DNA of 64,000 nucleotides. It comes from a bacterium (GTDB lineage Bacteria; UBA8248). The position numbers and the translations under genes were made by a program. The stretch is from NCBI GenBank assembly GCA_963692865.2, contig OY843592.1, positions 3,776,001 through 3,840,000 on the forward strand, in the 5' to 3' direction. Every line of letters begins with the position of its first letter. The stretch's first letter is position 1. Below are positions 14,521 to 38,402 of this stretch, in pieces. Below the pieces are notes generated by a model. The model did no database searches, was not told the origin of the DNA, and saw only the letters and a list, made by a program, of their open reading frames with translations.

Positions 14521-14550
14521 AAAAAAACCGGGGGGCCGAAGCCCCCCGGT
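14521..14550 (-). terminator. Rho-independent terminator of porin A
   Basis: Minus strand ACCGGGGGGC-TTCG-GCCCCCCGGT followed by a T run. Confidence 0.9.
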
Positions 14551-14591
14551 CGGTTTCGCGTCAGGATGGGACGCGAACGTCCTTCATGCGG

Positions 14592-15821
14592 CTAGAAGAT
14601 GTGGCGAATCGTCCAGCCTGCCGCCCAACCATCGTCGGGAGTGTCGGCGTCGGCGGCCTTGCCGTAGTCGCCTCGCATGAGCATGGCGGCCACAGCCCTG
14701 AGCTCCAGGTTCGAGTGGATCTTCCACTTGAGGGCGACGTTCAGCTCGGTGCCGAAGTCCTTCGCGTCGTCCGTGCCGGCATCCATGGAACTCTCGGCGG
14801 CGCTGTAGAGGGATACGCCGCCGCCCAGCGTCAGGGTCTTGGAGACCTTGTAGTCGGCCAGGCCCTCGATCACGACCGCGCCGTTCATGCGGCTTTGCAG
14901 GGCGACGTCACGGATGTTGTTCCCGAACGTCGTCCAGCGGCGCGAACTCATGATGTGACTGCCGATGAACCAGCCGGAGCCGCCCAGCTGAGGCGTTTTG
15001 AACCTGCCTTCTTCGTTGTCGCCGGCGGTGTCGTCGCCGGAGAGCATGGTGAGGTTGCCCATGAGCTTCAGCTTGCCGAAGCTGGCGGAAGTCCGCAGCA
15101 GGAGCGCCCAGGCCGAGAGCTCGGTGCTGTCGTCGATATCGCCGCTCTGGAAGACGCCCGAGGCGTTGATGTTCAGCATGCCGGCCTTGGTCTTGGCGTG
15201 GAGGCCGAGGAAGCTGTAGTTGTAGCCGTTGTCCTTCCCGCTTCTGGAGTTGGCCGCCCAAGGCGTGAGCGTGAGGGTGGGGGCCACCTTGATGGAGAGG
15301 CCGCCGTAGTAGTCCGACAGGTCGGCGTTGGCGGAACTGCCGTCTTCCGCCGCCTTGGTGTGGAACAGGCTGAGCGAGACGTTCTTGCTGAGTTTGCCGT
15401 AGACCGCGACGCCCGGCTCACGATGGCGGCCGCCGCTGTCGTAGATTTCCTTGTCCGGCGAGAAGTAGTCCGTCCGGCCCCAGCGCATGCGCAGCGCGCT
15501 GCCCGGAATGGCGTAGTCGATCACCCAGCGGTTGACGCCCACGGTCTGCCGTCCGGCAGAGGTGAAGCCGCCGTTCGCGCTCTGGAACTCGGGCTCCCAC
15601 ACCGCCGTTACGGCGCCGCTCTTCATCGTGAAGCGCGGGCGGATGAGCGCGTCCAGATAGGCCTCTTTGTCGTCCGCGTCGTCGTTGCCGTCCTTGTTGA
15701 CGTTTTCGCTGGAGCCGCGCACCCGGAAGAAGCCGCTGAACTTGAAGTCGGCCGCGTAGGAAGGCGCGGTGAACGCCACGAGCAGCGTCAGCGCGAATAA
15801 AGCTAGCAGAAGTTTCTTCAT
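14592..15821 (-). CDS. Outer-membrane beta-barrel / porin-like protein (paralog A)
   Basis: Sec signal MKKLLLALFALTLLVAFTAPSYA, amphipathic beta-strands, acidic loops, C-terminal Phe (WTIRHIF); GAGGAG RBS. Confidence 0.82.
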   Translation of the reverse strand: MKKLLLALFALTLLVAFTAPSYAADFKFSGFFRVRGSSENVNKDGNDDADDKEAYLDALIRPRFTMKSGAVTAVWEPEFQSANGGFTSAGRQTVGVNRWVIDYAIPGSALRMRWGRTDYFSPDKEIYDSGGRHREPGVAVYGKLSKNVSLSLFHTKAAEDGSSANADLSDYYGGLSIKVAPTLTLTPWAANSRSGKDNGYNYSFLGLHAKTKAGMLNINASGVFQSGDIDDSTELSAWALLLRTSASFGKLKLMGNLTMLSGDDTAGDNEEGRFKTPQLGGSGWFIGSHIMSSRRWTTFGNNIRDVALQSRMNGAVVIEGLADYKVSKTLTLGGGVSLYSAAESSMDAGTDDAKDFGTELNVALKWKIHSNLELRAVAAMLMRGDYGKAADADTPDDGWAAGWTIRHIF

Positions 15822-16072
15822 TGTGTATTTCTCCTCACTGGAGGTTGAAAAAATGTTGCCGCGTTCCTTCGTGTTCGATGTCCTTGATTTCATTCGCGTT
15901 TCTTTTTGCTTCCATTGCAGGGCTTCTCGCTCTCCGGTTACCCCCTCTCTTGCAATGTCGCCCTGCGCATCGAGAAATATTTATCAACCGAACCGGATAA
16001 AAACCGGTTGCGCAAACACTCTTCCGGCCTGCGAAAATGGCCGCGCCATTCCGTCTTTCTCCAAAGAATAGA
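15714..16072. repeat. Left arm of ~360-bp inverted repeat (leader + 5' coding of porin paralogs)
   Basis: Reverse complement is nearly identical to 36863-37221. Confidence 0.93.
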
Positions 16073-16093
16073 GAAGACGGCGCTCTTTGTCAA
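16065..16093 (-). promoter_or_regulatory. Sigma70-type promoter for porin A
   Basis: Minus strand TTGACA (16093-16088), 17 bp spacer, TATTCT (16070-16065). Confidence 0.75.
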
Positions 16094-16312
16094 CCGGCAA
16101 TCCCGGTCGAAACCCCGAAAACCATTGCCGCGCGATTCGCATCCTACACCGGATTCGAAGACGGAAGCAACCCCTCAAGGGGTTCAATATCAAATTCTTG
16201 CAGGAATCTCCCCGCCGGAGCCAAGGGGCTGGGAGTTCCCCGCTCCGTCCGCTTCCCGGGGGCGAAGAAAAATTTTCCGCGCGCGCCCCCGCCCGGTCCC
16301 CGAAAATGCGCC

Positions 16313-16341
16313 TTGCGCCCATGAAACCTCCGGGCTATATT
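16313..16341 (+). promoter_or_regulatory. Putative sigma70 promoter (copy 1)
   Basis: TTGCGC-N17-TATATT; near-identical copy at 17370-17398. Confidence 0.6.
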
Positions 16342-16437
16342 CGTCCATGCAGACTCGAGGCCGGACGCCCGCCGTCCGGCGTGGGCTCCATCCGCCGGGG
16401 TCGCCGGTTCGGGCGTGAAAAACAGGGGGAAGAAGGC

Positions 16438-16758
16438 ATGACGATTGAATCGTGGGCCCTGCTGTTCCAGGGGCTGGCCCTCATCCCCGCCTACGGGGGG
16501 ATGCTCCTCATCTGGCACGGCATCCGCGTCATGTCGAAAAACGCCGAGATGCGGGCGGCGGACTCCGAACGCAAGCACGAGGAAGTGATGAGCGAATCCG
16601 CGCGCAGGCATGAGGAAGTAATGAGCGAATCCGTTCGCAGGCACGAGGAAGCAATGCGCAACCACGATAAGAGCATGGCGGCCTTGCGTGAACTCATCGA
16701 GGGGCAGGCCGAAAGCCGTCTGGCATTGCGCGAACTCATCGAGCGCACGGGGCGATAG
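16438..16758 (+). CDS. Small membrane-anchored coiled-coil protein with 11-aa repeats
   Basis: N-terminal hydrophobic helix then (RKHEEVMSESA)-like repeats; purine-rich RBS; tandem paralog follows. Confidence 0.7.
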   Translation: MTIESWALLFQGLALIPAYGGMLLIWHGIRVMSKNAEMRAADSERKHEEVMSESARRHEEVMSESVRRHEEAMRNHDKSMAALRELIEGQAESRLALRELIERTGR

Positions 16759-16789
16759 ATTTGACCGTGAAAACCGGAGGGGCGAAAGC

Positions 16790-17044
16790 ATGACGATTGA
16801 AGCGTGGGCCCTGCTGTTCCAGGGGCTGACCCTCATCCCCGCCTACGGGGGGATGCTTCTCATCTGGCACGGCATCCGCGTCATGTCGAAAAACGCCGAG
16901 ATGCGGGCGACGGATTCGGAACGCAAGCACGAGGAAGCAATGCGCAACCACGATGAAAGCATGACGGCCTTGCGTGAACTCATCGAGGGGCAGGCCGAAA
17001 GCCGGCAGGCCTTGCGCGAACTCATCAAGCGCACGGGCAGGTAG
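16790..17044 (+). CDS. Tandem paralog of 16438-16758 lacking two 11-aa repeats
   Basis: MTIEAWALLFQGLTLIPAYGG...; GGAGG RBS; 66 nt shorter than the first copy. Confidence 0.7.
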   Translation: MTIEAWALLFQGLTLIPAYGGMLLIWHGIRVMSKNAEMRATDSERKHEEAMRNHDESMTALRELIEGQAESRQALRELIKRTGR

Positions 17045-17075
17045 AATCGCCTGAAAACCGGGGCGACTCGCCGCG

Positions 17076-17357
17076 GGCCGTTGAAAAAGCCCTCCTGACA
17101 GGGTAAAGGCAACCCCCCCTACCCCCCTTGTCAGGGGGGTAAAAAAAACAACGCCTCTCGTCGGGGGGGGAGTAAATTCAAATCCCCCCTTGACGGTGTT
17201 GTTGAAAAACCTATCCCTCTCGCATCAACCACGTTTTACCCGTAGGTCGGACATATATGTCCGACATAGTATGCGGCCCGCATTGTGAAGGCGAAAAGGC
17301 AGGGCCGCATGATATGCGGCCCCTACACACTTCCTTCTCCGGCTTTCTCAACAGCCC
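17076..17357. repeat. REP/MITE mosaic
   Basis: GTTGAAAAA ends, CCCCCCTTGTCAGGGGGG palindrome, REP pair around TTGTGAAGGCGAAAAGGCA. Confidence 0.88.
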
Positions 17358-17369
17358 CATACACGCGCC

Positions 17370-17398
17370 TTGCGCCCATGGAACCCCCGGGCTATATT
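17370..17398 (+). promoter_or_regulatory. Putative sigma70 promoter (copy 2)
   Basis: TTGCGC-N17-TATATT, same context as 16313-16341. Confidence 0.6.
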
Positions 17399-17424
17399 CG
17401 TTCACGTCAATCGGAGGAAGGCGG

Positions 17425-17634
17425 ATGCCCGCATTCGAGGCGCTCCGCGCATCCAATCAATGCCGGGAGATTTCCAACTTGCGGAGGGAAGTCTCCAGCC
17501 TACGCAAAGAAATTTCCGATTTGAAATCGACAATACGCCGATCCGAGCAGGAGGCGGATATGCGCCGATTCGCATGGTGTGTGAGCCTAGGGGTATCCGG
17601 CTCGATCGTCGCCCTGGTCAAGCTCCTGCCGTGA
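17425..17634 (+). CDS. Small coiled-coil protein with C-terminal membrane anchor
   Basis: GGAGG RBS; heptads EISNLRREVSSLRKEISDLK, then hydrophobic tail IVALVKLLP. Confidence 0.55.
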   Translation: MPAFEALRASNQCREISNLRREVSSLRKEISDLKSTIRRSEQEADMRRFAWCVSLGVSGSIVALVKLLP

Positions 17635-17672
17635 GTCGGACCGGCGCCTCCCCGCCTTCACGGTAACGAACG

Positions 17673-19589
17673 CTATTCCCTGATCCTGTACAAGAAAACC
17701 CGGCTTTTCGTACCCTTCAACAACCCCGAGTCCGCCGCCGCCACGACGAGGTCGTCGGAACCGTCGTTGTCCGCGTCGCCGAAGGCGAAATCCACGACTC
17801 CCCGGCCCAGTTTTCTGGAGCGCCAAGTCTCGGCCAGACCGCCGCCGTCCCACACCAGGCTCGCTATCTGCCCCCCCGAAACGCCCAGGCCCGGCGCGAT
17901 GGCGGCGGCGTACTCGTTGCGGATCACCAGCACCTCGTCCACCCCGTCCCTGTCCACGTCTTCGACCAGCACGCGCGAGCGTATGGGGAGGTCCGGCGTG
18001 TGCGCCCCGTCGCCCGTGGTCTCGGCCCTGGCCTCGGAGAAGAACTTATGGACGGGCGCGCCGTATTTTTCCGAACTGGAGTAGATGCTTTGCCCGCTCC
18101 TCGAGAACACCCTCAGCCTGTCGTCCTCGCCCACCTCGACCACCTCCAGCGCGCCGTCCCCGTTGACGTCCCAAAGGCCGAAGCCGAGAATCGTCAAGTC
18201 GGGCGGAAGCTGATAGGGGGCGGCGGGCGCGAGTTTCCCGCCCGACCAGCGATAGCTGCGGATGGGGCCTTCGAAAGCCCTGTCGATCCCCTCGCTCTGG
18301 CCCAGGAGCAGGTAGGCTTCCGAATCGGGCATCTTCGCGCCCCTCTCGGGCCGCCGGACGCGAAGGAGGCGGTAGAATGTCCTGTCGTTGCGGACGAGGG
18401 TCGTGAACTTGCCGCCCTTGAACTGCAGGATCATCGAGAACAACTCGTTCGAGCGGTAGGAGGCGAGGTAGAACTCGGGCGCGCCGTCTCCGTTCATGTC
18501 GGCGACGTCGAGCCAGCGGAAATCGTTCGCCGGCCCCCCGTCGAAGCGGGCGACCTCGCGCATGCGCCTCTCCCCGAAGCGGTAGACGGTGAGACGGGTC
18601 GGCGTGATGAGGACGACCTCGTTCTTCCCGTCGCCGTCCACGTCCGAGACGGACATCCCCCGGACGGCGACCTTGTCGAAAAGATAGCTCTTCACGCCGC
18701 CGGCCCCGCCGGGCGCGCCCTCTCGGGCGAGCACGAAGCTCTCGTTCGCGGGTCCCGCGCGCCCCCCGCCCGCGCCGCGCTTGAGCGCCTGTTCCCTGAG
18801 CGGGCCCTGCTCGAAGGGCAACTCGTCCGCAATCGCCACGGCCCGGAAGAGTTCCTTCTTCGTGGTGAGGGACAAGAGACGGGTGGAGAGAACCTTCTTC
18901 CCCCGGACTTCGCGCAGTTCGTTCTCGAGGGCCATGTCGCCCCGCACCTGGTTGCGCAGGCGGATGGGGTTCTCGTTTTTCAGGATTTCATCGGTGGCGA
19001 TGCCCGTCTCGAGCAGCCACACGTGGAGCCTGTCCACGTCGTAGACGTCGAAGCGCCCGCTCCCGAGGAGTTGGCGCCCGAGTTCCCTCGTGAGCGTCTC
19101 CATGCTGACGGACTCTTCCGTCCGGTTCACGAAGGGCAGCACCGCCAGGCGGATCTTCGAGGCGGACATGCGCACCGTGTCCTTCACGCGCGGGGAAAGC
19201 CGCCCGCCGGGCGCCAGGCGCGCCAGACGGGCGATGGAGAATTTCTCCCGCACCTCGACGACCTCGACCTCGCCTATCTCCTCTTCCAGCCTGCCGAGGA
19301 CGACGCCCGTCGTCGGGTGGCGGAACGGCGCGCCCTCGCGGTAGACGCCCAGCCTGGCGCCCTTGACCACCTCGTCCTTCTCGCCGAAGCTCAGGTAGAG
19401 GTCCGCTCCCCGGACGGCGACCACCGCGCCGCGCAGGTTCGGGAACCTCCCGCGCAGCTTGTCGCTGATGAGGCCCAGGGCCTTGCGGTAATCGTTCTCC
19501 TGGGCGTGAATCCCGCCTCCGGGCGCGCCGAGGAGAACCGCGAAAGCGGACAGGACGAGCAGCGCCTTCTTGACGACGTGCGAAAACAT
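17673..19589 (-). CDS. Exported FG-GAP/VCBS-repeat (beta-propeller) protein
   Basis: Signal peptide; repeated DVDGDGKNE / DMNGDGAPE / DVNGDGALE / DVDRDGVDE / DADNDGSDD motifs. Confidence 0.8.
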   Translation of the reverse strand: MFSHVVKKALLVLSAFAVLLGAPGGGIHAQENDYRKALGLISDKLRGRFPNLRGAVVAVRGADLYLSFGEKDEVVKGARLGVYREGAPFRHPTTGVVLGRLEEEIGEVEVVEVREKFSIARLARLAPGGRLSPRVKDTVRMSASKIRLAVLPFVNRTEESVSMETLTRELGRQLLGSGRFDVYDVDRLHVWLLETGIATDEILKNENPIRLRNQVRGDMALENELREVRGKKVLSTRLLSLTTKKELFRAVAIADELPFEQGPLREQALKRGAGGGRAGPANESFVLAREGAPGGAGGVKSYLFDKVAVRGMSVSDVDGDGKNEVVLITPTRLTVYRFGERRMREVARFDGGPANDFRWLDVADMNGDGAPEFYLASYRSNELFSMILQFKGGKFTTLVRNDRTFYRLLRVRRPERGAKMPDSEAYLLLGQSEGIDRAFEGPIRSYRWSGGKLAPAAPYQLPPDLTILGFGLWDVNGDGALEVVEVGEDDRLRVFSRSGQSIYSSSEKYGAPVHKFFSEARAETTGDGAHTPDLPIRSRVLVEDVDRDGVDEVLVIRNEYAAAIAPGLGVSGGQIASLVWDGGGLAETWRSRKLGRGVVDFAFGDADNDGSDDLVVAAADSGLLKGTKSRVFLYRIRE

Positions 19590-19744
19590 ATCAAATCCTC
19601 ATGCGCAGAGATGCGCTCTCAAGAGACCCGGGGCGCGGCTTCGGACGATCAATCGGCCGTCGTTCGACATCGAAGACGGAAAGCCGCGACCACCCCCAAA
19701 TATACCGCGTAAGAGGCAGAAAGCAAGTTTCTCCCGCCCATCGC

Positions 19745-20060
19745 GAAAAGCCTTCGGGGGTTGTGTTGAAACAGCCTCCTGACAGGGTAAAGGCAACCCC
19801 CTTGAAGGGGAAACCCCATAAAGGCACCCCCCTACCCCCCCCCCGCCTCATCCTTCGATACGCGGCTTCGCCGCTACTCAGGATGAGGGTGCAGGTCGGA
19901 CATATATGTCCGACATATCATGCGACCCGGCCTTTTCTCGCCCCTCCGCAACGGGCCGCATGATATGCGGCCCCTACAGGGGAGCCGGCGCAGGAACAGG
20001 CCCTTGGCTGAGGAACAGGGCGGTTCGCGAACCGCCCCGGCGGAGAAATCGTAGCCGGAC
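19745..20060. repeat. REP/MITE mosaic
   Basis: CCTTCGATACGCGGCTTCGCCGCTACTCAGGATGA (also at ~6690), REP palindromes, GGCGGTTCGCGAACCGCC. Confidence 0.85.
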
Positions 20061-20105
20061 AGGCCCTTGGCCTGTTCGGGGTCTCCGCGCCCGCCCGGCC
20101 CGCTA

Positions 20106-20213
20106 TTGACAAGCCAAACCCGCGCATGTAGATCGCTCTTCGCCATTATCCGCTACGCCCGTAGGCGGGCGCGTATTTCAAGGCCCCTCACGGGACTCAC
20201 CCGTGGGGGGCCT
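20106..20213 (+). promoter_or_regulatory. Putative promoter plus two-hairpin leader of the NYN gene
   Basis: TTGACA-N17-TAGATC; hairpins CGCCCG-TAGG-CGGGCG and AGGCCCCTCACGGG-ACTCA-CCCGTGGGGGGCCT. Confidence 0.5.
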
Positions 20214-20219
20214 ATCCAC

Positions 20220-20807
20220 CTGAAAACAGCAGTCCTTATCGATGGCGGCCATCTTCGCGTTCTTGCCCGGCGAGCCGGGTATCGTTACGATCCGGATTAC
20301 ATTGAGGCCGTTGCCCACGCTTGTGTCATCCCTGATGAAATTTTGCTCCGTGTTCTTTACTATGACTGCGCTCCTTACCAAGGCAGCCCCAAGCTGCCGG
20401 TCTCGGGTAAACCCGCCAATTTCCGCGGATCGGACGAATGGCTCAAAGCCCCCGCCGCCAGACCTTGCTTCGCCGTCCGCCTCGGCGCCCTGAAGTTCCG
20501 GGGCTTCGTGCCGAAGAAGACGCCCCTCGTCCGGGGCGCTCTTTCCGATCAAGACTTCAAGCCTCGATTCGAGCAGAAGGGGGTCGATATGCGAATCGGT
20601 CTCGACATCGCCACCTACGCAACCAACCGGTCGGTAGAACGGATTATTCTGATCAGCGGAGACACCGACTGTTTGCCGGCCTTGAAGTTCGCCCGCATTG
20701 CCGGCCTCCAGATCGTGCTCGTTCAATTTCCGCAACAACAGTTCGCGCAAGAATTACTTTGGCACTCGGACTTCCAAAGACAAGTCAAGTGGCCTGAACA
20801 ACAATAG
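20220..20807 (+). CDS. NYN domain (LabA/DUF88, PIN-like) ribonuclease
   Basis: KTAVLIDG, RVLYYDC, EQKGVDMRIGLDI, ILISGDTDC motifs; start appears non-canonical (CTG) or unresolved. Confidence 0.85.
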   Translation: MKTAVLIDGGHLRVLARRAGYRYDPDYIEAVAHACVIPDEILLRVLYYDCAPYQGSPKLPVSGKPANFRGSDEWLKAPAARPCFAVRLGALKFRGFVPKKTPLVRGALSDQDFKPRFEQKGVDMRIGLDIATYATNRSVERIILISGDTDCLPALKFARIAGLQIVLVQFPQQQFAQELLWHSDFQRQVKWPEQQ

Positions 20808-20823
20808 AAAGGCATTGAACGAG

Positions 20824-20995
20824 GCCTGTTCCGGGGTCGGGCTGACACACGGATCCGCCCCTGTAGTCGTCATCCAGGATGGTATTGCAGGCGGCGATTC
20901 CTCCCGCATCGGTCGAAATCGACCTCCCTCTCCGGTCGGAACCGACTCCTCGGGAGCGCCCCACACATATCATGCGGCACGGCCTTTTCCGCCCC
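20824..20995. repeat. Degenerate REP mosaic
   Basis: CCTGTTCCGGGGTCGGGCTGACACACGGATCCGCCCCT and CATATCATGCGGC variants of modules seen at ~6030 and ~53860. Confidence 0.7.
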
Positions 20996-21402
20996 TCCGA
21001 CGACGCGCCGCGCATTTCCCCGCATTTCGCGTCATGGGCGAGGCGGCGGCGCGTGGCAGGATCGCCCTCCGATACCGTGGGCCGTCCGTTTCCGAAAAAC
21101 GGGCGAATTCCCGTACAATAAGATAAATTCGGATAAAATTGGATAAATAAAGATAAATTTATTGAGGCCAAATAGCTGAAAATAAAGGCGTTCAGTCGTT
21201 TTTGCACGAAACGGCGCATGAGGGAAGGGATCGCGCCGAAAAGGCGTCCGCCTCTTTTTTGACGAAAACGTCCACCCGCCGGCGCGCCTCGTCAGAGCCG
21301 GGATAATCGGCCCGAAAGCCCGCGCGCAGGCGCCCCGTCCGCGCGGCGAACCCGGCCCGCAAGGGGTCTTCAAAAACGTCGAAACGCGGGGCGCGGCTCA
21401 AC

Positions 21403-23298: not shown

Positions 23299-23559
23299 GC
23301 GTCCTCTCTCATCCGTTGCCTGAACTATCGGGTTTCCCGCCAAGGCGCCGGCAGCCGCCCGGAAAAGAACGGCTGCCGCATGGAAAGGCTCCCGGTATGC
23401 GGCCCGGCTCAAGTAATTTCAGGGACATCCGAATCATCATGCCGCATCATGACAACAAAACCTCCGCCCCGCCAGCAGAAACGTCGATAAAATCGTCCAT
23501 CTCGTCCGCTTTTCCTTTTGACTCCCGGCGAAACGACTGCTAGTCTTTTCACTTACGAG

Positions 23560-23636
23560 TTCGCTGGGGGTGCCTTGCAGGCTGAGAACAAACCCTTCGA
23601 ACCTGAACCGGTTAGCGCCGGCGTAGGGAAGCGACA
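23560..23636 (+). ncRNA. TPP riboswitch
   Basis: GGGGTGC...GCTGAGA..AACCC..GAACCTGA..CGGTTA..GCCGGCGTAGGGAAG consensus directly upstream of thiC. Confidence 0.93.
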
Positions 23637-23724
23637 GGTCTTCCAAATCCTCCGGTTTCCCTTCGCCGACATGTGAATAAAGAGGGTTCATCCCAGGGGA
23701 AAGCTTCATCCTTCTCCGACATGA

Positions 23725-25539
<1,815 letters not shown>

Positions 25540-29964: not shown

Positions 29965-29968
29965 GGAG

Positions 29969-30790
29969 GTGTTGAAAAACCCCTCCTCGCTCGGATTGAC
30001 CACCGCCGTTATTGTCGTTTCTATTGTAGGGGCCGCATATCATGCGGCCCGGCTTTTTCGCCTTCACAATACGGGTCGCATGATATGCGGCCCCTGCAAT
30101 CGAGATTGCACGCCGTCATTCCGGCGCATGCCGGAATCCAGGGACTTTGCTTTGGAATTCGTCTTTTCGCATATTGTTTTTCATGGTCGTCCTGCGGTTC
30201 GAAATTCACCTCGGCTCTGGATTCCGTCGAACCCTCCCTCCGCGGTCGGCTCCGACACCGGAATGACGAGCAAAACCGTCGAACCCTCCCTTCCCGGTCG
30301 GCTGCATTCGCCGAATCGCGAAATCAGGTGTTTTTCAACAGCCCCTTGTCAGGAGGGGTATAACAAGGCCATGTATCCGCGCTCGGTCGGCGACGCGATG
30401 ATCCCGTAGGGGCGGACCTGTGTGTCCGCCCGACTCCGGAACAGGGTTTTTCAACATCCTCTTGTCAGGGGGTATAAAAAGGCGATGTGCCCCGCCGGGT
30501 AGAGAGGCTTTTTCTTCTTACCCCCTGACAAGGGGCTGTTGAAAAAGCCCTCCTCGCTCGGATTGACCACCGCCGTCATTGTCGTTTCTATTGTAGGGGC
30601 CGCATATCATGCGGCCCGGCTTTTTCGCCTTCACAATACGGGTCGCATGATATGTCGGACATATATGTCCGACCTACGGGTAAAACGTGGTTGATCCGAG
30701 AGGGACAGGTTTTTCAACAACCCCGACAAGGGGGGGGTTGCCTTTATCGGGTTTCCCCCTCAAGGGGGAGGGAGGGTTGCCTTTCCGGGG
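29969..30790. repeat. Large REP/MITE mosaic with internal duplication
   Basis: ~115-bp module at 29971 repeated at 30538; multiple REP and CCCCTTGTCAGGGG modules. Confidence 0.9.
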
Positions 30791-30853
30791 CGGCGCCCCT
30801 GGTGAAGCCGATGAGGCCGCCGCGCATCGCCGGGAATCCGGCGACCGGCTTTC

Positions 30854-32005
30854 TCAGAATATATCTTCCGCGATACTCCCCGCGACCCGTTCCGCCGCCT
30901 CGTGCGCGGAATCGCGCGCCAGGTGCGCGTAACGCGCCGTGGTCTGTACGTGGGCGTGGCCGAGGAGCTTCGCGATGACGGGGAGTCCTTCTCCCAGCGC
31001 GAGCGCTCTCGAGGCGTAGGAATGGCGAAGGTCGTGGAGCCGCACGTCGTCGAGGCCCGCCCGCGCGCGGACGGGCCGCCAGACGTGATCGAGGCCGCTC
31101 AGGCGCGCGCCCGGCTTCCTGCCGGGAATGACCCAGGGATTCCCCTCCGCCCGGGGGAGGGCGGCCAGGAGCGCGACCGCCTGCGGCGGAAGCGAGACCA
31201 CCCGCGCGCCCGTCTTGGAGTCCGGCAGCCTCAGCTCGCCCTCGTCCAGCGCCACGTCCTCCCAGCGGAGAGCGAGTATTTCGGACTTCCGGCACCCGGT
31301 CAGCATGAGCAGGCGTATGGCGGCCAGAGCGGGCGCGGACGCCCCGCGCTGATTCTCCATCTCTTCCAGAACGGACCCCAGGCGCGTGAACTCCTCATCC
31401 GTCAGGAACCGCTCCCTCTTGCGTTCGGGGTATTTGACGATCAGGCGGCAGGGGTTGCGGCCCTCGGGCGCCAGTCCCCAGTTCTCGGCCAGCCTGTACA
31501 TCGCATGGAGGATTCGGACGACCATGTTCGCGACAACGGGCGTCTCGCACAGGCTCTGGTGCAGTTCCGTCACCCGCGCCCGCTCCAGCGCCATGATCGG
31601 CGCCTTGCCCAAAGCGGGCACGATGTGCTTCCGCACGACCGCCCTGGTCTTCGCGGCGGTGCCCGGCTTGCAGCGCACCGAGACGTATTCGGTGAGATAC
31701 CGCTCGGCGAGGGCCGCCACGTTGGGCCCGCCCGCGGGCTTCAGCCGCTTCGGAATCGCCTCCTCGCCCGCCTTGATACGGGCGATGATGAGCGCCGCCC
31801 TCCGGCGCGCCTGCTCGGCGCCGATCACGCCGTGGCGGCCCACCGCCACCCGCCTGGGTCCTCCCGGGCCCCGCGCCTGGGCGACGTAGACTTTTGAGCC
31901 GGTGGGGTAGACCCTGACGCCGAAGCCCGTGAGGTCCCCGTCCCAGAACACCGTATCCTTGTGAACCGCCAGCTTCTCGACCGCCCGGTTCGAGAGCGTT
32001 TTCAT
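30854..32005 (-). CDS. Tyrosine recombinase/integrase with N-terminal arm-DNA-binding domain (copy 2)
   Basis: FWDGDLTGFGVRV arm domain; catalytic TGCRKSE, DSKTG, HDLRH, LGH, TARY. Confidence 0.92.
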   Translation of the reverse strand: MKTLSNRAVEKLAVHKDTVFWDGDLTGFGVRVYPTGSKVYVAQARGPGGPRRVAVGRHGVIGAEQARRRAALIIARIKAGEEAIPKRLKPAGGPNVAALAERYLTEYVSVRCKPGTAAKTRAVVRKHIVPALGKAPIMALERARVTELHQSLCETPVVANMVVRILHAMYRLAENWGLAPEGRNPCRLIVKYPERKRERFLTDEEFTRLGSVLEEMENQRGASAPALAAIRLLMLTGCRKSEILALRWEDVALDEGELRLPDSKTGARVVSLPPQAVALLAALPRAEGNPWVIPGRKPGARLSGLDHVWRPVRARAGLDDVRLHDLRHSYASRALALGEGLPVIAKLLGHAHVQTTARYAHLARDSAHEAAERVAGSIAEDIF

Positions 32006-32022
32006 AACGGGCTTCGCCGTTC

Positions 32023-33201
32023 TCACCCGACGTTCCCGTTCGTCAGGTGGGCGCCGATGCTCCCCCCCACCCGGGTGGCCGCCTCCTTCTCTGCCTGGAG
32101 CATCAGGTGCGTGTAGCGCGCCGTCGTCGTTACCGTCGCGTGCCCCAGGAGCTTGCCGATCGTGTAGAGGCTCTCGCCGAGCGCCAGAGCCCTCGATGCG
32201 TATGAGTGCCTGAGGTCGTGGAGCCGCACGTCGGAGAGTCCCGCCCGCTCCCGGAGGGGCCGCCAGTAGTAGTGAAGACCCGTGAGGTTCTTTCCCGGCT
32301 TTTGTCCGGCGATCACCCACGGGTTGTCCGGCTGCCGGGGCAGCTTGTCGAGAACCCCCCGCACGGGATTCGTCAGTGGAACCATGCGGGGACCCGCCTT
32401 GGCGTCCCTGAGCCTGAGAACTCCCGCCGTGCGGTCCACGTCGTCCCATTTGAGGTTCAGTATCTCGTTCCTCCGGCACCCGGTCAGCATGAGGAGCCTG
32501 ATCGCCGTGATCGCGGGCGGCCAGACTGAGCCCGCCGCCTCGGCGTCTTTGAGCGACCGGCCCAGGCGGCGGTATTCCCCGGGTGTCAGGAACCGCTCGC
32601 GCGGGCGCGTCCTGTAGAGTGATGGTCTTCTGCACGGGTTCCGCCCGGGCGGTACCAGGCCCCACGCCTCGGCCAGGTTGAACATCCTGGAGAGGAGATG
32701 GATCGACGTGTTGGCCCGGCTCGGCGTATCGCGGAGGCGGTGATGAAACGCGGCGACTTCCGCCCGTCCGATCCGGCCCGGCGCCATCCCGCCCAGGGCC
32801 GGCAGGACGTGCTTGTCCAGTATGGCGCGGTACTCCACGACGGTGCGCGGCTTCAGGTGCCTTTCCACGTAAACGCGCATGAAGCGCTCGGCAACCGCCG
32901 CCAGGGTGAGCTCCTCCTCGGGCGGCTTGCGTCCGGGGTCTTCGCCCCGCTTGATGCGGTCGATGACGAGGGCGGCCTGCTTCCTCGCCTCCCCGGTCGA
33001 CAGCGCCCCGTGCCGCCCTAAAGTCACGCGTTTTATCCCCCCGGGTCCCCTGGATTGCACCACGTAGGCCTTCCTGCCCGTAGCGTGGACGCGCACCCCG
33101 AAGCCGGCCAGGTCCCGATCCCAGAAGAGGGTGTCCCGGTTTTCGGTTTTGAGCGCGTCGACGGCGCGCTTGGTGAGCCTGAACTCGCTTCTCCTGGGCA
33201 T
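32023..33201 (-). CDS. Tyrosine recombinase/integrase with N-terminal arm-DNA-binding domain (copy 1)
   Basis: FWDRDLAGFGVRV; TGCRRNE, DAKAG, HDLRH, LGH, TARY. Confidence 0.92.
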   Translation of the reverse strand: MPRRSEFRLTKRAVDALKTENRDTLFWDRDLAGFGVRVHATGRKAYVVQSRGPGGIKRVTLGRHGALSTGEARKQAALVIDRIKRGEDPGRKPPEEELTLAAVAERFMRVYVERHLKPRTVVEYRAILDKHVLPALGGMAPGRIGRAEVAAFHHRLRDTPSRANTSIHLLSRMFNLAEAWGLVPPGRNPCRRPSLYRTRPRERFLTPGEYRRLGRSLKDAEAAGSVWPPAITAIRLLMLTGCRRNEILNLKWDDVDRTAGVLRLRDAKAGPRMVPLTNPVRGVLDKLPRQPDNPWVIAGQKPGKNLTGLHYYWRPLRERAGLSDVRLHDLRHSYASRALALGESLYTIGKLLGHATVTTTARYTHLMLQAEKEAATRVGGSIGAHLTNGNVG

Positions 33202-33218
33202 GGCCCCCCTCGTTGAAC

Positions 33219-33329
33219 ATGTCATCAAAACGCATACCGGCGGCGTCAATCGATATCGCGTTTCCGCATGAACAGGCGTGGTCTCTCCCGCCTGATATGT
33301 CATCAAAACGCATATCAGCGGCGTCAAAT
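33219..33329. repeat. ~31-bp direct repeat (period 78 bp) upstream of the integrases
   Basis: ATGTCATCAAAACGCATACCGGCGGCGTCAA at 33219 and ATGTCATCAAAACGCATATCAGCGGCGTCAA at 33297. Confidence 0.85.
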
Positions 33330-33466
33330 ATGGGCGTATTCAAGCATAAACACGGCGGTAAACGTTCGGCGACAGGGTGACGGCCTGCTTTTCTCATCCC
33401 GGATAATCGAGGAGATTCCCTTGCGGGGGCTGGTAACGAGATTCGACATGTGCTAATCATGTCGGC

Positions 33467-35821
33467 ATGAAGATTTGCACGGAAGATGTTCAGGCGGAAG
33501 TTTCGTTGGTCGAGAGGCCGGATGACCCACGGCCTCATCCCCCCGGGTTGCCCGCAACCGCAGAGGCGTACTGGCGTTCGCTGTACGAGCGGGAGCGTGC
33601 GCGCGCGGAGGCTGCGGAGGCGCGCTGCGAGGAGTTGCGGTGGAAGGAAGCCGATTCCCGCTCCCGTGCGGGCAGGCTGAAGCGGCAGTACGACAAGTGC
33701 CGGAAGAAGCTCGAGGCGGCCGCCGGGGAGGCGAAGGAAGCCCGCCGCGCGGCGAAGGACGCGCTGTCGCTCAAGGCGGAAGTGGAGCGGCTGGAGAAGC
33801 TGCTCGCGGAAGCGGGGGTCGAGCCGCGCAAGCGCAGCCCGCTCATGTCGTTGCGCATGGAGGTCGTCCGGCTTCGCAAGGAGCTCTCGGGCGTGCCGTC
33901 GCCGGGAGAGGCGGAGCGGGTGCGCAAGGCCCTGGAGGAGCGCAGGGAGACGATTCGCGCCCTGCGCAAGGAGGCCGGCCGGCGGGAGAAGGAGATTGTC
34001 CGGCTGGAGGAAGGATTGGCCCGGGAGAAGCAGAAGTCGGCGGCTCACAAGGAGACCATCCGGGAACTGGACGAGGAGGCCATCGGGCTCTACAGGAAGT
34101 TGCGGCGATTGCGCGACCAGGCGGAGGTGGTCGAGTCGTTGTCCGCGGAGGTCTACCGTCTTAAAGTCTCCCTCGGTGCTGCGGACATCGCCAGGGAACG
34201 GCTGAAGGCGCGGCTGTTGCGCGCGATGGAGGCGGCGCGCTCGAGGCCGCCGTCGCGTGGGGACGAGGAACTGCGCAAGGCCCTGGGGAGGTCGCGTCGT
34301 CAGAAGACGGCGCTCAGGTCGCTGTCCCGGGAGAACGCCCGGCTGTCCAGAGCGCTCCGCAGGTCGGAGACCCGCCGGGCACGGCTGGAGGCCGAACTCG
34401 CGAAGCTTCGCGCCACCGGAGCGGCGCTGGCGAAGAGGCTGTTCGGGCGCAAGAGCGAGCGGCAGGAGAAGCCGCGCTCGGACCGCAGGCGCGGCGGGCA
34501 GCCCGGCGCCCGGGGCCACGGGCGGACTCCCCGGCCCGCGCTCGATGAGAAGACCGAAGTCCGCAACCCGCCGGCCGATGCGCGCGTCTGCCCCTGTTGC
34601 GGGCAGCCCTACGCGGCCAACGGCGCACGTGTATCGAGCATTATCGAGATCGAGGTCTCGGCCCACAAGCGCGTCATCCACCGTCCGAGGTGGCGGCGGG
34701 GGTGCGAATGCGCATCGTCTCCCGCCGAAGTGTCGGCGCCGCCCGCGCCGCGCCTGTTCGCGGGTACGCCTTACGGGACGAGCGTGTGGGCGCTCTTCCT
34801 GTTCGAGCGCTACGCCTGCTTCCGTCCGCTGCGCCGGGTCGCCGCGTGGCTCTCCGACCAGGGGCTCCCGATCTCGGCGGGCACGCTGGGCGACAGCATG
34901 CACCGGTTCACGCCGCTGTTCGAGCCGCTGGCCGGGGCGATCCTCTCCCGCCAGAACGAGGCGGCGCTGCGCCACGGGGACGAGACGACCTGGCGCATAC
35001 AGTCGCTTCGCGAGCAGGGACGCTCGAGCCGCGCCTGGCTGTGGACGTCGGTCAGCACGGACTCCGTCTACTTCCACGTCGACCCCTCGCGGTCTGCTGA
35101 GGTCGCGATGAAGCTCTTCGGCGCGTCCGGCCGCCATACGGTCCTCGTCTGCGACCGCTACAGCGCCTACAAGAAGCTGGCGCGCGAACTCGACGGCGCC
35201 GTAATCCTGGCCTTCTGCTGGTCGCACCAAAGAAGAACCATCATCGACTGCGCCGCCGGCGAGGAGCGGCTGACGCCGTGGGGCGAGAGATGGATCGGGC
35301 GGATTGCGAAGCTCTACCGCCTGAACGATGCGCGCCTGGCCCGTTACGACCCGGGCGCCGAACGACAGGGCGCGGCGTTCGACGCGGCGCAGACTGCGCT
35401 CGAGAAGGCGCTCGATAGCCTGTTCACGCAGGCCCAAAGTGAACTGGCCGCCTTGCCGGCGCAGGCGCCCGAGGGCAAGGCGCTTCGCTCGCTGCTGAAC
35501 CACCGCGAGGGGCTGAGCGTCTTCCTCGAGCGCCCATGGGTGCCTATGGATAATAACCAATCGGAGAGATTGCTTCGGGGTCCCGTGATCGGCAGACGCC
35601 TCTCGTTCGGCTCCGACAGCGAGGCCGGCGCCCGGTTCACGGCGATGATGTACTCCGTCCTCGGTACGCTCTCGTTAAACGGCATCGACCCGCTCCGCTG
35701 GCTCGATGCATGGCTCACGGCCTGCGCGGAGGGCGGCGGCCGGGCGCCCGGTGACATCTCGTCCTGGCTGCCCTGGTCGATGAGTGAGGAGCGCAGGCGC
35801 GCCCTCAAGGCGCCGGGATGA
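33467..35821 (+). CDS. IS66-family DDE transposase (TnpC-like) with long N-terminal coiled coil
   Basis: LFGRKSE, GQPGARGHGR, CPCCG zinc ribbon, GDET, VCDRYSAY, CWSHQRR, DNNQSERLLR, WLPW. Confidence 0.92.
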   Translation: MKICTEDVQAEVSLVERPDDPRPHPPGLPATAEAYWRSLYERERARAEAAEARCEELRWKEADSRSRAGRLKRQYDKCRKKLEAAAGEAKEARRAAKDALSLKAEVERLEKLLAEAGVEPRKRSPLMSLRMEVVRLRKELSGVPSPGEAERVRKALEERRETIRALRKEAGRREKEIVRLEEGLAREKQKSAAHKETIRELDEEAIGLYRKLRRLRDQAEVVESLSAEVYRLKVSLGAADIARERLKARLLRAMEAARSRPPSRGDEELRKALGRSRRQKTALRSLSRENARLSRALRRSETRRARLEAELAKLRATGAALAKRLFGRKSERQEKPRSDRRRGGQPGARGHGRTPRPALDEKTEVRNPPADARVCPCCGQPYAANGARVSSIIEIEVSAHKRVIHRPRWRRGCECASSPAEVSAPPAPRLFAGTPYGTSVWALFLFERYACFRPLRRVAAWLSDQGLPISAGTLGDSMHRFTPLFEPLAGAILSRQNEAALRHGDETTWRIQSLREQGRSSRAWLWTSVSTDSVYFHVDPSRSAEVAMKLFGASGRHTVLVCDRYSAYKKLARELDGAVILAFCWSHQRRTIIDCAAGEERLTPWGERWIGRIAKLYRLNDARLARYDPGAERQGAAFDAAQTALEKALDSLFTQAQSELAALPAQAPEGKALRSLLNHREGLSVFLERPWVPMDNNQSERLLRGPVIGRRLSFGSDSEAGARFTAMMYSVLGTLSLNGIDPLRWLDAWLTACAEGGGRAPGDISSWLPWSMSEERRRALKAPG

Positions 35822-35825
35822 CGCC

Positions 35826-36698
35826 GTGATCGAGTGCCGCTACTACGGACGCGACTTCACGAGCGAAGAGATGGCGCTGCTGCGCGCGCTGATCGCAGGC
35901 CCCCCGGCGCTCAACCGCCACGCGCTCTCCAGGGAGTTCTGCCGGCGCATCGGCTGGTACAAGCCCGACGGCGGGCTCAAGGACATGATGGCGCGGGTGA
36001 CCATGCTCGCCATGGACAAAGACGGCCGGATCACGCTACCCCCGCCGAAGTGGCGCCAGAACCGGCCCGGCCCGATCGTCTTCGGACCCGACACCGAGGC
36101 GCCCCTCATCCCGGCGCCCGGGACCCTCGACGAGGTACGCCCCCTCGATATGCGCATCGCCGTGCGCGGGACCCGCGAGGGCAGACTCTGGAACGAGTTC
36201 GTCGCCCGCTACCACTACCTCGGCTACAAGACCCTCGTCGGCGCCCAGATGCGCTACGCCGTCCTCGACCGCGGCGGCAGGCCCCTCGCCATGCTCGGCT
36301 TCTCCACCGCCGCGTGGAAGCTCGCCCCGCGCGACGCCTTCATCGGATGGACGCCCGAATTGCGCGAGAAGAACCTCCCCCTCGTGGTCGACAACCCGAG
36401 GTTCCTCATCCTGCCGTGGATCAAGATCCCCAACCTCGGCTCCCACATCCTCGCCATCGTCCGAAGGCGCCTGCCCGGAGACTGGACCGAGCGCTACAAC
36501 ACGACCCCCGTGCTCATCGAGACCTTCGTCGAGACGCCCCGCTACACCGGCGCCGTATACCGGGCCTCGGGATGGATCCGCGTCGGAACCACACAGGGCC
36601 GTGGACGCTACGACAGGCACAAACGCTTCGACAAGCCCAGGAAGGACGTCTGGCTGAGACCGCTCCGCAACAACTGGAAGCACGTCCTCAACCGCTGA
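35826..36698 (+). CDS. DUF4338 / Druantia DruA-like domain protein (IS passenger)
   Basis: HYLGY..LVGAQMRY, RDAFIGW, VVDNPRFLILPWI..PNLGS, DW..RY...PVLIETFVE, G..YRASGW..VG.TQGRG; GTG start assumed. Confidence 0.82.
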   Translation: MIECRYYGRDFTSEEMALLRALIAGPPALNRHALSREFCRRIGWYKPDGGLKDMMARVTMLAMDKDGRITLPPPKWRQNRPGPIVFGPDTEAPLIPAPGTLDEVRPLDMRIAVRGTREGRLWNEFVARYHYLGYKTLVGAQMRYAVLDRGGRPLAMLGFSTAAWKLAPRDAFIGWTPELREKNLPLVVDNPRFLILPWIKIPNLGSHILAIVRRRLPGDWTERYNTTPVLIETFVETPRYTGAVYRASGWIRVGTTQGRGRYDRHKRFDKPRKDVWLRPLRNNWKHVLNR

Positions 36699-36862
36699 AA
36701 CAACTCCCGTCACCCTGTCGCCGAACGTTTACACACGGCGAGCGCGCAAGAGACAACGGCCAGGAAAATATCAGCTTAAAATAAATGATAACAGATATTT
36801 ATATTAGATGAGCGCGTTCAGCCGCATCAGCGCCGGAGCGGCGAATTCATTTCAACCTTACA

Positions 36863-37221
36863 TCTATTCTTTGGAGAAAGACGGAATGGCGCGGCCATTT
36901 TCGCAGGCCGGAAGAGTGTTTGCGCAACCGGTTTTTTATCCGGTTCGGTTGATAAATATTTCTCGATGCGCAGGGCGACATTGCAAGAGAGGGGGTAACC
37001 GGAGAGCGAGAAGCCCTGCAATGGAAGCAAAAGAAACGCGAATGAAATCAAGGACATCGAACATGAAGGAACGCGGCAACATTTTTTCAACCTCCAGTGA
37101 GGAGAAATACACAATGAAGAAACTTCTGCTAGCTTTATTCGCGCTGACGCTGCTCGTGGCGTTCACCGCGCCTTCCTACGCGGCCGACTTCAAGTACAGC
37201 GGCTGGTTCCGGGTGCGCGGC
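36863..37221. repeat. Right arm of ~360-bp inverted repeat (leader + 5' coding of porin paralogs)
   Basis: Nearly identical to the reverse complement of 15714-16072. Confidence 0.93.
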
Positions 37222-38331
37222 ATCGGCCAAGACAACCTGGACGGGAATGACGAGGATGACGACAACCGGAACAACATGGACTGGCTTTACCGCCCGAAAT
37301 TCACGGCGAAGAGCAAAAACGTCACCGCGATGTTGGAGTTCAATCTAGGCGGCGACTTCGAAGATGGCCCGGACGGTGCCGGCAAGCGGCCGGCGGTGTC
37401 CGTCAACAGATGGTTTGCCGACCACGCCATTCCGGGCAGCGCGGTCCGCATGCGTTGGGGCAGGTGGGACTTCGCCGGGCCGGACGGGGAAATCTTCGAC
37501 AACAACGGCTGGCACCGCGAACAAGGCATCGCGCTCTACGGCAAGCTCAGCAAGAACGTCTCGCTCAGCATGTTCCACACCAAGGAGATAGACGACAAAG
37601 GCCCCGACAACGAGGACAAGGCGGATTACTTCGCCAGCCTCTCCATCAAGGCGAGCCCCGCTCTCACCCTCACGCCGTGGGCGGCCAACTCCCGGGACGG
37701 AGCGGACGACAGCTACAACTACAGCTACCTCGGCCTGCACGCCAAGGGCAAGATGGGCGTGATCGGCCTGAACGCCTCGGGCGTCTTCCAGAGCGGTGAC
37801 CTCACCGACACCGAGGAGATCTCGGCCTGGGCGATCCTGGTGCGGACTACCAGCAGCTTCGGCAGGATGAAGCTCACGGGCCACCTCACCATGCTCTCCG
37901 GCGACGACAACGCCGCGGACAACGAAACCAATACATTCAAGTTCCCTTCAGGCGCCGGCTCGATCCACGGCGGCCTCTTCATGAGTTCGCGCAGTTTGGC
38001 GGGTTATGGCGCTCACTACGGCAGGAACCTGTCGCATTTGAACGGCGCGGTCGTGGTGGGAGTCTCGGTCGATTACAAGGTCTCCAAGACCTTGATGTTC
38101 CGCGGCGCCGTGTACTCCCACAACGCCGCCGAGAGTTCCACAGCGGCCGGCGCGGACGACGCGAAGGACTTCGGCACCGAGCTCAACGCGGGCCTCAAGT
38201 GGCAGATCTACCCGAGCCTCTATCTTGCCATGGATGCCGGCATCATGATGCGCGGCGATTACGGCAAGACGGCCAGCCAAGAGATCGACGACGCCTGGAT
38301 GGCCGCATGGCGGTTGAACCACAGCTTCTAG
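37114..38331 (+). CDS. Outer-membrane beta-barrel / porin-like protein (paralog B)
   Basis: Identical signal peptide to paralog A; shared strands (YGKLSKNVSLS, LTLTPWAANSR, NASGVFQSGD, DDAKDFGTELN); C-terminal Phe. Confidence 0.82.
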   Translation: MKKLLLALFALTLLVAFTAPSYAADFKYSGWFRVRGIGQDNLDGNDEDDDNRNNMDWLYRPKFTAKSKNVTAMLEFNLGGDFEDGPDGAGKRPAVSVNRWFADHAIPGSAVRMRWGRWDFAGPDGEIFDNNGWHREQGIALYGKLSKNVSLSMFHTKEIDDKGPDNEDKADYFASLSIKASPALTLTPWAANSRDGADDSYNYSYLGLHAKGKMGVIGLNASGVFQSGDLTDTEEISAWAILVRTTSSFGRMKLTGHLTMLSGDDNAADNETNTFKFPSGAGSIHGGLFMSSRSLAGYGAHYGRNLSHLNGAVVVGVSVDYKVSKTLMFRGAVYSHNAAESSTAAGADDAKDFGTELNAGLKWQIYPSLYLAMDAGIMMRGDYGKTASQEIDDAWMAAWRLNHSF

Positions 38332-38372
38332 CAGCATGACGGACGTTCGCGTCCCATCCTGACGCGAAACCG

Positions 38373-38402
38373 ACCGGGGGGCTTCGGCCCCCCGGTTTTT
38401 TT
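38373..38402 (+). terminator. Rho-independent terminator of porin B
   Basis: ACCGGGGGGC-TTCG-GCCCCCCGGT followed by a T run; identical to porin A terminator. Confidence 0.9.

Follow-up and report, generated by a model that had tools for sequence, protein, structure and literature searches.

In Campylobacter fetus, oppositely oriented homologues with conserved 5' regions flank the invertible segment of the sap locus, which is several kilobases long and carries a single promoter in its entirety, and the major surface protein is expressed on an either/or basis. Inversion is RecA-dependent; the segment includes other genes, among them secretion genes, and is not known to carry a recombinase. In Escherichia coli, the paralogous tyrosine recombinases FimB and FimE are linked to the invertible promoter element of the fim system: fimS, just 314 bp in length, contains the entire promoter and turns one operon ON or OFF, and both recombinases, which are not known to have an arm-binding N-terminal domain, are encoded outside it. 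Here we describe a locus in a bacterium of the UBA8248 lineage (assembly GCA_963692865.2, contig OY843592.1), contained in a stretch of 64,000 nt (positions 3,776,001 to 3,840,000 of the forward strand) that we refer to as the window and whose numbering is used throughout. Two genes for porin-like proteins, pointing away from each other, surround an interval encoding two tyrosine integrases, and just one of them has a complete consensus promoter. We view the locus as a stretched copy of a two-porin module found across the genus, and judge the chances to be about even that this is an inversion switch whose promoter is split between its -35 and -10 hexamers.

Other switches of this general type are found in mycoplasmas. 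The loci vpma of Mycoplasma agalactiae, vsp of M. bovis and vsa of M. pulmonis are single-promoter switches of surface lipoproteins, driven by the tyrosine recombinases Xer1, Mbr and HvsR; they have a conserved 5' untranslated region and signal peptide codons, one promoter and a recombinase gene in or near the locus, with inversions between sites in the 5' regions placing a silent gene behind the promoter (PMC2268961). At the mba/UU376 and UU172 loci of Ureaplasma parvum, inversion at inverted repeats alternates two surface protein genes, and tyrosine recombinases are the proposed mediators (PMC3047005, PMC3599477).

Inverted porin paralogues and an asymmetric promoter

The two porin genes, porin A and porin B, share near-identical inverted 5' regions, here termed arms. 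The end of the enclosed interval downstream of the integrase gene intL is called the D end, and that upstream of intR the U end; the latter is present in two parts. The features concerned are as follows.

14520-14591, minus strand: 3' flank and terminator of porin A, a stem-loop (14551-14526) followed by a T run
14592-15821, minus strand: porin A, an open reading frame of 409 amino acids, adjoining serA as the porin does in single-porin genomes
15702-16072, minus strand: left arm, comprising TATTCT (16070-16065), a leader of approximately 243-245 nt and around 40 first codons (signal peptide and first strand)
16073-16143, minus strand: D-end remnant, the native porin upstream region, with the -35 hexamer TTGACA at 16093-16088; it shows homology to module D ends and to sequence upstream of single porins
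30854-32005, minus strand: IntL, the second tyrosine integrase, 383 amino acids, recognised by Pfam and by its catalytic blocks; orthologues 70-93% identical, with ratios of nonsynonymous to synonymous substitution (dN/dS) of 0.14-0.40
32023-33201, minus strand: IntR, the first tyrosine integrase, 392 amino acids, recognised in the same way; orthologues 78-92% identical, dN/dS 0.15-0.44
33202-33357, no strand assigned: integrase-proximal part of the U end, with a duplicated block (a direct repeat) that is also conserved upstream of other IntR-like genes
36733-36862, plus strand: porin-proximal part of the U end, with an AT-rich block, a weak promoter-like motif (36776-36805) and no properly spaced -35 before TATTCT
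36863-37233, plus strand: right arm, comprising TATTCT (36865-36870), the leader and around 40 first codons
37114-38331, plus strand: porin B, 405 amino acids, the divergent paralogue of porin A
38332-38403, plus strand: terminator of porin B, a stem-loop (38372-38397) followed by a T run

Global alignment of the arms gave 361 identical columns out of 372, with only three differences within 36863-37195, and a repeat search of the window resolved the same inverted repeat into three overlapping pieces: 15702-15906 with 37029-37233 (205 nt, 96% identical), 15904-16003 with 36933-37032 (100 nt, 100%) and 15999-16072 with 36863-36936 (74 nt, 100%). Identity falls to 73% in the remaining porin coding sequence (826 of 1131 columns) and to 46% between left and right in the 200 nt just inside the arm boundary, and is high again in the 3' flanks, terminators included (70 of 72 columns). 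The whole porin genes with their terminators are inverted paralogues, beyond the 360 bp arms alone. Arm and porin each occur in two copies only across the 4.15 Mb genome.

On the minus strand before porin A, TTGACA is found 17 nt from TATTCT, with 10 of 12 matches to the consensus; this is the one such site, against 0.3 expected in shuffled sequence. The -35 position on the porin B side reads CGAATT. Promoter scans of both porin regions, arms included, listed just one further candidate, TTAAAA-18-TATATT at 36776-36805, a weaker motif (9/12) located upstream of porin B in DNA that the two sides do not share. A sequence-only reading of this stretch had already described the divergent pair with its near-identical inverted 5' repeat of around 360 bp, the greater divergence of the porin bodies, an edge of identity lying 2 nt from TATTCT, the hexamers on either side and two intact tyrosine recombinases within the segment, and the alignments, motif scans and domain searches agree with it on all of these. 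Its claim that porin A has the sole complete promoter stands in that the only consensus -35 is at the D end, and has to be relaxed to accommodate the 9/12 motif upstream of porin B. This motif, an insertion sequence at 33358-36732 and the extension of the inverted paralogy to entire genes with their terminators go beyond what that reading had noted.

The same asymmetry is seen throughout a motif census of 26 porin upstream regions, comprising nine D junctions, ten U junctions and seven single-porin genomes. TTGACA-17/18-TATTCT is present at 9/9 D junctions, and all ten U junctions have TATTCT without TTGACA; six of the single-porin genomes have TTGACA-17/18-TATTCT, and the seventh TTGACA-18-TAACAT. 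The leader between the -10 and the ATG is 222-285 nt long in every one of the 26. Over up to 532 nt, the D ends of two relatives (G011 and G016; genomes are designated G and loci L) can be aligned with sequence preceding the porin in single-porin genomes, and the D end, together with the -35 on the segment, is therefore the native porin promoter region. When 14 junctions from seven genomes were aligned, the D and U sequences became alike at one identical point, TCTATTCT, in all seven: per genome, D and U arms are 72-100% identical downstream of this point and 28-36% identical in the 100 columns upstream. The arm boundary is thus the same nucleotide in all of these genomes, and the conserved stretch found there is also kept in single-porin genomes lacking the integrases.

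Each porin therefore keeps its own -10, a leader of around 245 nt and signal peptide codons, which together form the inverted arms, while the -35 and the native upstream region are present once, at the D end. Recombination between the arms would flip the segment and rebuild TTGACA-17/18-TATTCT, a promoter of the sigma-70 type, before the other porin, leaving the first with a bare -10. Loss of the -35 would be expected to silence a porin copy, and the two surface-exposed beta-barrels are predicted, as a result, to be expressed in an either/or or a strong/weak manner. As one junction of each type, U and D, is present both before and after a flip, the reaction would be reversible.

Quite improbable, in our view, is that these are two independently expressed paralogues, partly homogenised by gene conversion, in which both are transcribed, either from a start within the common leader or from separate promoters used under different conditions, the difference at the -35 sets expression levels and inversion has no regulatory role. 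The mosaic of identity, at 99% in the 5' region, 73% in the body and 97% at the terminator, is typical of conversion tracts, the long leader conserved in all 26 regions could hold further signals, and counterparts of the U-end motif TTAAAA-18-TATATT exist in relatives. Yet the scans list nothing beyond this motif and the D-side TTGACA-17-TATTCT, and conversion leaves unexplained both the intact integrase pair of every module genome and the inverted interior of one relative, G020, detailed below.

An Rfam scan of the window returned a TPP riboswitch only, and so no known RNA family in the porin leader. One contig from a metatranscriptome (run X8; 1222 nt, approximately 92% alike) covers 14804-15973 and ends around 60 nt short of the predicted start; it shows that an RNA library contains the porin of a relative together with 150 nt or more of its leader, and is uninformative on start sites and on porin B. 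At the U end, an ATG at 36808 opens a stop-free frame that runs through the entire leader (36808-37113) into porin B, giving an open reading frame of 507 amino acids. Both this ATG and its spacing of 55 nt to the arm boundary, free of indels, are retained in U ends throughout the other module genomes aligned.

The proteins themselves, which are 60% identical in amino acid sequence, match no Pfam family. Porin A scores 55 bits against the NCBIfam model DESULF_POR1 (NF033939), representing the trimeric porins of the Desulfovibrio type, which is below the cut-off of 250 and involves the N-terminal half only; similarly, Pfam Porin_4 is matched by the porin of a congener at E 2.7e-4, below its cut-off. 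Porin B was modelled with AlphaFold from an alignment of 14 paralogues and orthologues. The model has a predicted local distance difference test score (pLDDT) of 71.2 and a predicted template modelling score (pTM) of 0.70, and consists of an N-terminal helix at residues 2-18 and afterwards strands only. Foldseek relates this model to AlgE (E 1.2e-16, TM score 0.64), the major outer membrane protein of Campylobacter (9e-14) and OprD/Occ channels (approximately 1e-10). Residues identical between porins A and B number 17 of 17 in the signal helix, 135 of 216 in the strands and 88 of 172 elsewhere. Given the modelled fold, porin-like outer membrane beta-barrel seems a fair name for the two proteins, albeit one that falls short of the cut-off of a curated family.

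The module in related genomes and its orientation

When porin B was used as query, every one of the 22 other genomes in the genus yielded matches. Six of these (G011, G012, G013, G014, G016 and G020) have a compact module, in which a porin on the minus strand and one on the plus strand are separated by around 3 kb holding exactly the tandem orthologues of IntR and IntL. Half modules were identified in G021 and G005, in both cases on short contigs, and on a metagenome contig, L039, which was the one locus detected by scanning metagenome contigs with an alignment of 14 porins; the corresponding scan of genome contigs gave six loci, none from new genomes. The porin-linked integrases of the module genomes are 78-93% identical to those of the window and the porins 46-74%, and porin A is 66-74% identical to a conserved porin type of the congeners. 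It is this conserved type that is linked to the D end in G011, G012, G014, G016 and G005, and a divergent type in G020, G013 and G021, indicating turnover of the porins themselves. Supplementary files aside, a search of the literature found no description of a porin-integrase-integrase-porin module, of tandem DUF4102 integrase pairs serving inversion or of invertons in this lineage.

To compare orientations, loci were placed in a common frame with serA on one side and the gene for an FG-GAP lipoprotein on the other. In the window and in G011, G012, G013, G014, G016 and G021, the D end points at the porin on the serA side, and L039 has the matching U side next to the FG-GAP gene; G020 alone has its D end on the FG-GAP side. 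G020 and G014 represent sister species, their integrases having synonymous divergence (dS) of 0.11-0.17. With serA at the left in both, serA (91.7%) and the serA-side porin (88.4%) align collinearly, and the interior aligns only when inverted. The serA-side porins are orthologous, at 88% amino acid identity, and are nevertheless linked to the U end in G020 and to the D end in G014. Judged from this alignment, what separates the two species here is an inversion with the arms as its limits.

The sequence-only reading had proposed a promoter-inversion switch, to be sought by comparing orientation in relatives, and one species with its interior inverted relative to its sister is what this comparison found. 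The layout, the asymmetry of the -35 and this flip all speak for the proposal. What is not retained is a design in which the 20.8 kb span, housekeeping genes included, forms part of the switch, as the modules of relatives are compact, at around 3 kb.

Exchange between arms is also indicated by their identity. Arms are 99-100% alike in two genomes, the window and G014, which points to homologous exchange. The leaders of the window's own two arms are 99% identical, whereas their identity with those of other species is 52-65%, hence sequence appears to have been exchanged recently between arms 20.8 kb apart. If the switch operates as proposed, inversion would recur within populations and be reversible.

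Could the identity of the arms, or their orientation, come from a repeat collapsed or mis-joined in assembly? The assembly is of a metagenome type with 6.69% estimated contamination, and the short-word contigs listed for public runs break before the arms. However, the window lies inside a contig of 3.94 Mb, contigs of two runs match its unique parts without differences (e.g. 14744-15459, 17733-19814 and 30706-31928), and six other species, assembled independently and in three cases as a single contig, have the architecture too, making an artefact extremely improbable.

A third porin was observed in G013, with a U-type junction and adjoining the FG-GAP block (L046, G013:C2:1061000-1080999). This locus is a segmental duplicate, 80-88% identical, of the U-side half of the module of that genome (L038), which adjoins serA 1.6 Mb away.

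The integrases, their mobile relatives and the stretched locus

IntR and IntL both consist of Pfam Arm-DNA-bind_3 (DUF4102), SAM-like and Phage_integrase domains, the last of these with E values of 3e-21 and 4e-19. The blocks GCRxxE, a beta-turn K, HDLRHS and LLGH...TTARY(T/A)HL, which we take to supply the catalytic residues R..K..HxxR..H..Y, are present in both proteins in 7/7 genomes. No internal stops occur in either gene in any of the seven, the stops counted in three rows of the integrase alignments falling in an over-extended 5' stretch, and dN/dS is 0.14-0.44 in all 42 pairwise comparisons; by this measure, both genes are under purifying selection. That every module has kept two intact integrases indicates a role for them as recombinases. 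Inversion might proceed by a site-specific route, with the arm-binding domains of IntR and IntL on AT-rich sites in the U end and crossover at or near the common boundary. The two integrases would then catalyse the reaction, although RecA-type recombination within the arms, as in C. fetus sap, is a second route that would give the same product.

Several observations weigh against a switch of this kind. The family to which the IntR-IntL pair belongs is multicopy, with hits in 17 of the 23 genomes of the genus and up to 24 per genome. Three other tandem pairs of IntR-like and IntL-like genes in the genome studied here (G000:C1:204740-207132, 3258818-3261165 and 3428373-3430733; further loci are L053-L057) have no flanking inverted repeat within 25 kb, and pairs in G013 and G002 are found in elements exceeding 10 kb, at approximately 0.2-0.4 kb from one terminus, so purifying selection on the integrases could serve mobility rather than inversion. 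At the nine loci with a known flank, eight share one orientation, which a rare or strongly biased inversion fits better than free switching. The arms of G011, G012 and G020 are just 72-75% identical. No defined core recombination site was found at the arm boundaries, and none of the contigs listed on 14501-34500 of the window for X1, X4, X5 and X8, four of 11 public runs that were all available as assembled contigs, bridges an arm, the arms being identical for at least 73 nt from the boundary and short-word contigs unable to phase them. The weak promoter-like motif, moreover, is positionally conserved in the U ends of relatives, and the genes of an insertion sequence upstream of porin B (see below) point towards it; because of this, porin B may not be silent, and may have transcription from the U-end motif or by read-through from the co-oriented insertion sequence.

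One candidate for a core site was tried and rejected. MAFFT aligns the boundary with blocks conserved upstream of other IntR genes, but in most genomes the match is not above that of shuffled sequences. In local alignments, the best match spanned the boundary in 6/9 genomes for one family block and in 1/9 for the other, and the scores were equalled by 2-128 of 200 shuffles for the first block and by 22-196 of 200 for the second.

The locus may instead be a relic of a mobile element, consisting of the integrases, the U end and a cargo porin, in which the integrases serve movement, the flip in G020 arose as a rare accident when paralogues underwent homologous recombination and the second porin is either expressed from its own weak U-end promoter or silent. 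Besides the multicopy family, the shared orientation of eight of the nine loci and the motif in the U end, this account can draw on the 92-99.8% identical copies in which the elements of G013 and G002 occur, with more than 10 kb of common cargo, on the duplication elsewhere of the U-side half of the G013 module, and on the presence of the unit at two chromosomal sites, namely the porin promoter in compact genomes and the spacer between the creatininase gene and the next gene in the window. We nonetheless think it rather unlikely. In 6/6 compact loci, no att-like direct repeat was shared by the D end and the sequence past the U-side porin, and inverted arms are not expected from simple integration. 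Homology of the supposed cargo porin starts exactly between the -35 and the -10 in every genome, which would be a coincidence. Furthermore, the porin-linked pairs form the group of highest identity (78-92%, other copies reaching at most 75%) and occupy a conserved position in at least seven species, implying that they have been inherited in place.

A further possibility, doubtful as it stands, is that the IntR-IntL pair, the U end and a porin with a -10 but lacking a -35 constitute a translocatable cassette, which borrows the promoter of a resident porin by inversion. Such a cassette would land inverted near the resident gene, 0.5 kb away in six species and 15 kb away here, with the shared -10 and leader acting as the crossover site, and a freely reversible inversion would hand the only -35 of the host to the incoming porin.

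The integrase pairs are probably an undescribed family of mobile elements with two integrases. Tandem IntR-like and IntL-like pairs of the genus family are around 53% identical to each other, and pairs 1 and 2 share 89% identity across 2.56 kb in this genome. In G016, a third IntR-like gene, 69% identical, directly follows the U-side porin at the end of a contig (L036, 8957-9487), and may mark a second element or a module in tandem. No tRNA gene is present in the 64 kb window.

Four further features account for the size of the locus in the window.

16144-29969, no strand assigned: housekeeping block of repeats, an FG-GAP lipoprotein gene, NYN and TPR genes, a TPP riboswitch with thiC, and luciferase-like, DUF192 and creatininase genes (identified with Pfam and Rfam)
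29970-30853, no strand assigned: cluster of REP-like repeats, at the left edge of a 9.7 kb insert
33358-36732, plus strand: insertion sequence of the IS66 family, 3375 bp, with a transposase and, downstream, an open reading frame resembling DUF4338/DruA (identified with Pfam and NCBIfam)
39380-39600, plus strand: remnant of a porin 3' end with a terminator and a REP unit, approximately 1 kb downstream of porin B

Only in this genome is the housekeeping block enclosed by the arms; in those with compact modules it lies outside. Single-porin genomes have the order serA, porin, FG-GAP, TPR, thiC, luciferase-like, DUF192, creatininase, which the left part of the window matches. In four of the five relatives searched, the next conserved gene, an orthologue of 39672-42017, follows 0.6-2.3 kb past the creatininase gene, and in G013 it is 6.4 kb away. 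This short spacer is replaced in the window by a genome-specific insert of 9.7 kb (29970 to approximately 39654), homology to relatives stopping at 29969 and resuming at around 39655. The insert holds the integrases, the U end and porin B, along with a small open reading frame from 38629 whose N terminus resembles a signal peptide. The porin remnant at 39380-39600 is 80-84% identical to porin 3' ends and terminators from relatives and, in inverted orientation, 84% identical over 204 nt to 14424-14618 of the window.

With the unit of integrases, U end and porin B lying beyond the creatininase gene, away from the promoter of porin A, a flip would turn 20.8 kb including thiC. Comparison with the relatives identifies this long interior, with thiC enclosed, as a secondary state of this genome. 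We found no series of simple inversions that places the housekeeping block inside the arms, and by the same comparison either a move of the integrase-porin B unit or a block interchange is needed.

The IS66-family element has perfect terminal inverted repeats of 26 bp and an 8 bp target duplication, ACACGGCG. Since a second copy, at G000:C1:3484017-3487391, is 100% identical, the element has been active, and was inserted, recently. It splits the U end, thereby separating the recombinases from the right arm, and is absent from the U ends of relatives; the 156 nt upstream of IntR, duplicated block included, are left intact.

Repeats of several kinds were also noted around the housekeeping block. 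The REP-like units are built on GTAGGGGCCGCATATCATGCGGCCC and are clustered at 14000-14500, 17244-17336, 19893-19987, 30020-30107, 30587-30680 and approximately 39500-39600; an inverted pair, 17173-17327 and 30592-30746 (155 nt, 91% identical), brackets most of the block, and the contig joints listed for public runs involve repeats of this type. Between the promoter of porin A and the FG-GAP gene, at 16414-17045, lie nested tandem repeats absent from relatives, with 33 nt units at 16561-16659 and repeats of 352 and 286 nt at 89-92% identity; neither of the long open reading frames there has a Pfam match. Copies of a GCATTT-repeat motif at 21008-21148 and 27281-27454, together with an AT block rich in GATAAAT, flank the TPR, thiC, luciferase-like and DUF192 genes. 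Similar motifs lie upstream of IntR-like genes in those elements of G013 and G002 that exceed 10 kb; the copies in the window may be solo ends of elements of this kind. A palindromic element at 27673-27815, with perfect arms of 30 nt, has a very high summed depth in metagenome contigs (24,611 in X1), many of which join 27699 to 27789 with differing inner letters; it looks like a very abundant repeat with a variable centre, similar to miniature inverted-repeat transposable elements or REP sequences. The TPP riboswitch upstream of thiC (23556-23646, 71.2 bits) is an ordinary feature.

Comparison with known inversion systems

Porins serve as major surface antigens and nutrient gates, and phages commonly use them as receptors. 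If the locus does switch, a heritable and reversible change of surface between porins 60% identical would be possible in an uncultured lineage known only from metagenome-assembled genomes, by means of a module that tolerates being stretched to 20.8 kb around essential-looking genes. Should the integrase pair catalyse the inversion, this would be a new system of two recombinases; were the cassette interpretation true, it would represent a mobile, self-contained way of adding a variant surface protein or phage receptor without bringing a promoter. The boundary common to all species, the asymmetric -35 and an interior flipped between sister species form a signature for which other genomes can be searched.

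The logic of inversion around a single promoter is already known. The vpma-type loci of mycoplasmas likewise have homologous surface genes with conserved 5' regions, one consensus promoter and a linked tyrosine recombinase; the present locus has two genes rather than a multigene array, and these encode porin-like barrels of a diderm. Whereas the break in those loci is in the 5' untranslated region, here it falls between the -35 and the -10, and two paralogous integrases of the arm-binding, P4-like type lie inside the piece predicted to invert. The Ureaplasma parvum loci differ in having short inverted repeats, recombinases encoded elsewhere, lipoproteins as products and a wall-less host.

The geometry resembles that of C. 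fetus sap, but only the -35 and the upstream part of the promoter are on the segment here, accompanied by recombinases. As in E. coli fim, a paralogous pair of recombinases is associated with a promoter element; in this case the pair is on the segment and has arm-binding domains. The integrases share with those of the P4 type the succession of Arm-DNA-bind_3, SAM-like and catalytic domains, and related pairs occur in the genus at the termini of multicopy elements that exceed 10 kb, yet this pair has neither a tRNA gene in the window nor flanking direct repeats, and is conserved in place between inverted paralogues. Hence, relative to the classical cases, the locus is set apart by its lineage, its porin-like genes, a conserved tandem pair of P4-type, arm-binding integrases carried on the segment and a break in the promoter spacer, such that the cut would pass through the promoter itself, with the -10 fixed and the -35 mobile.

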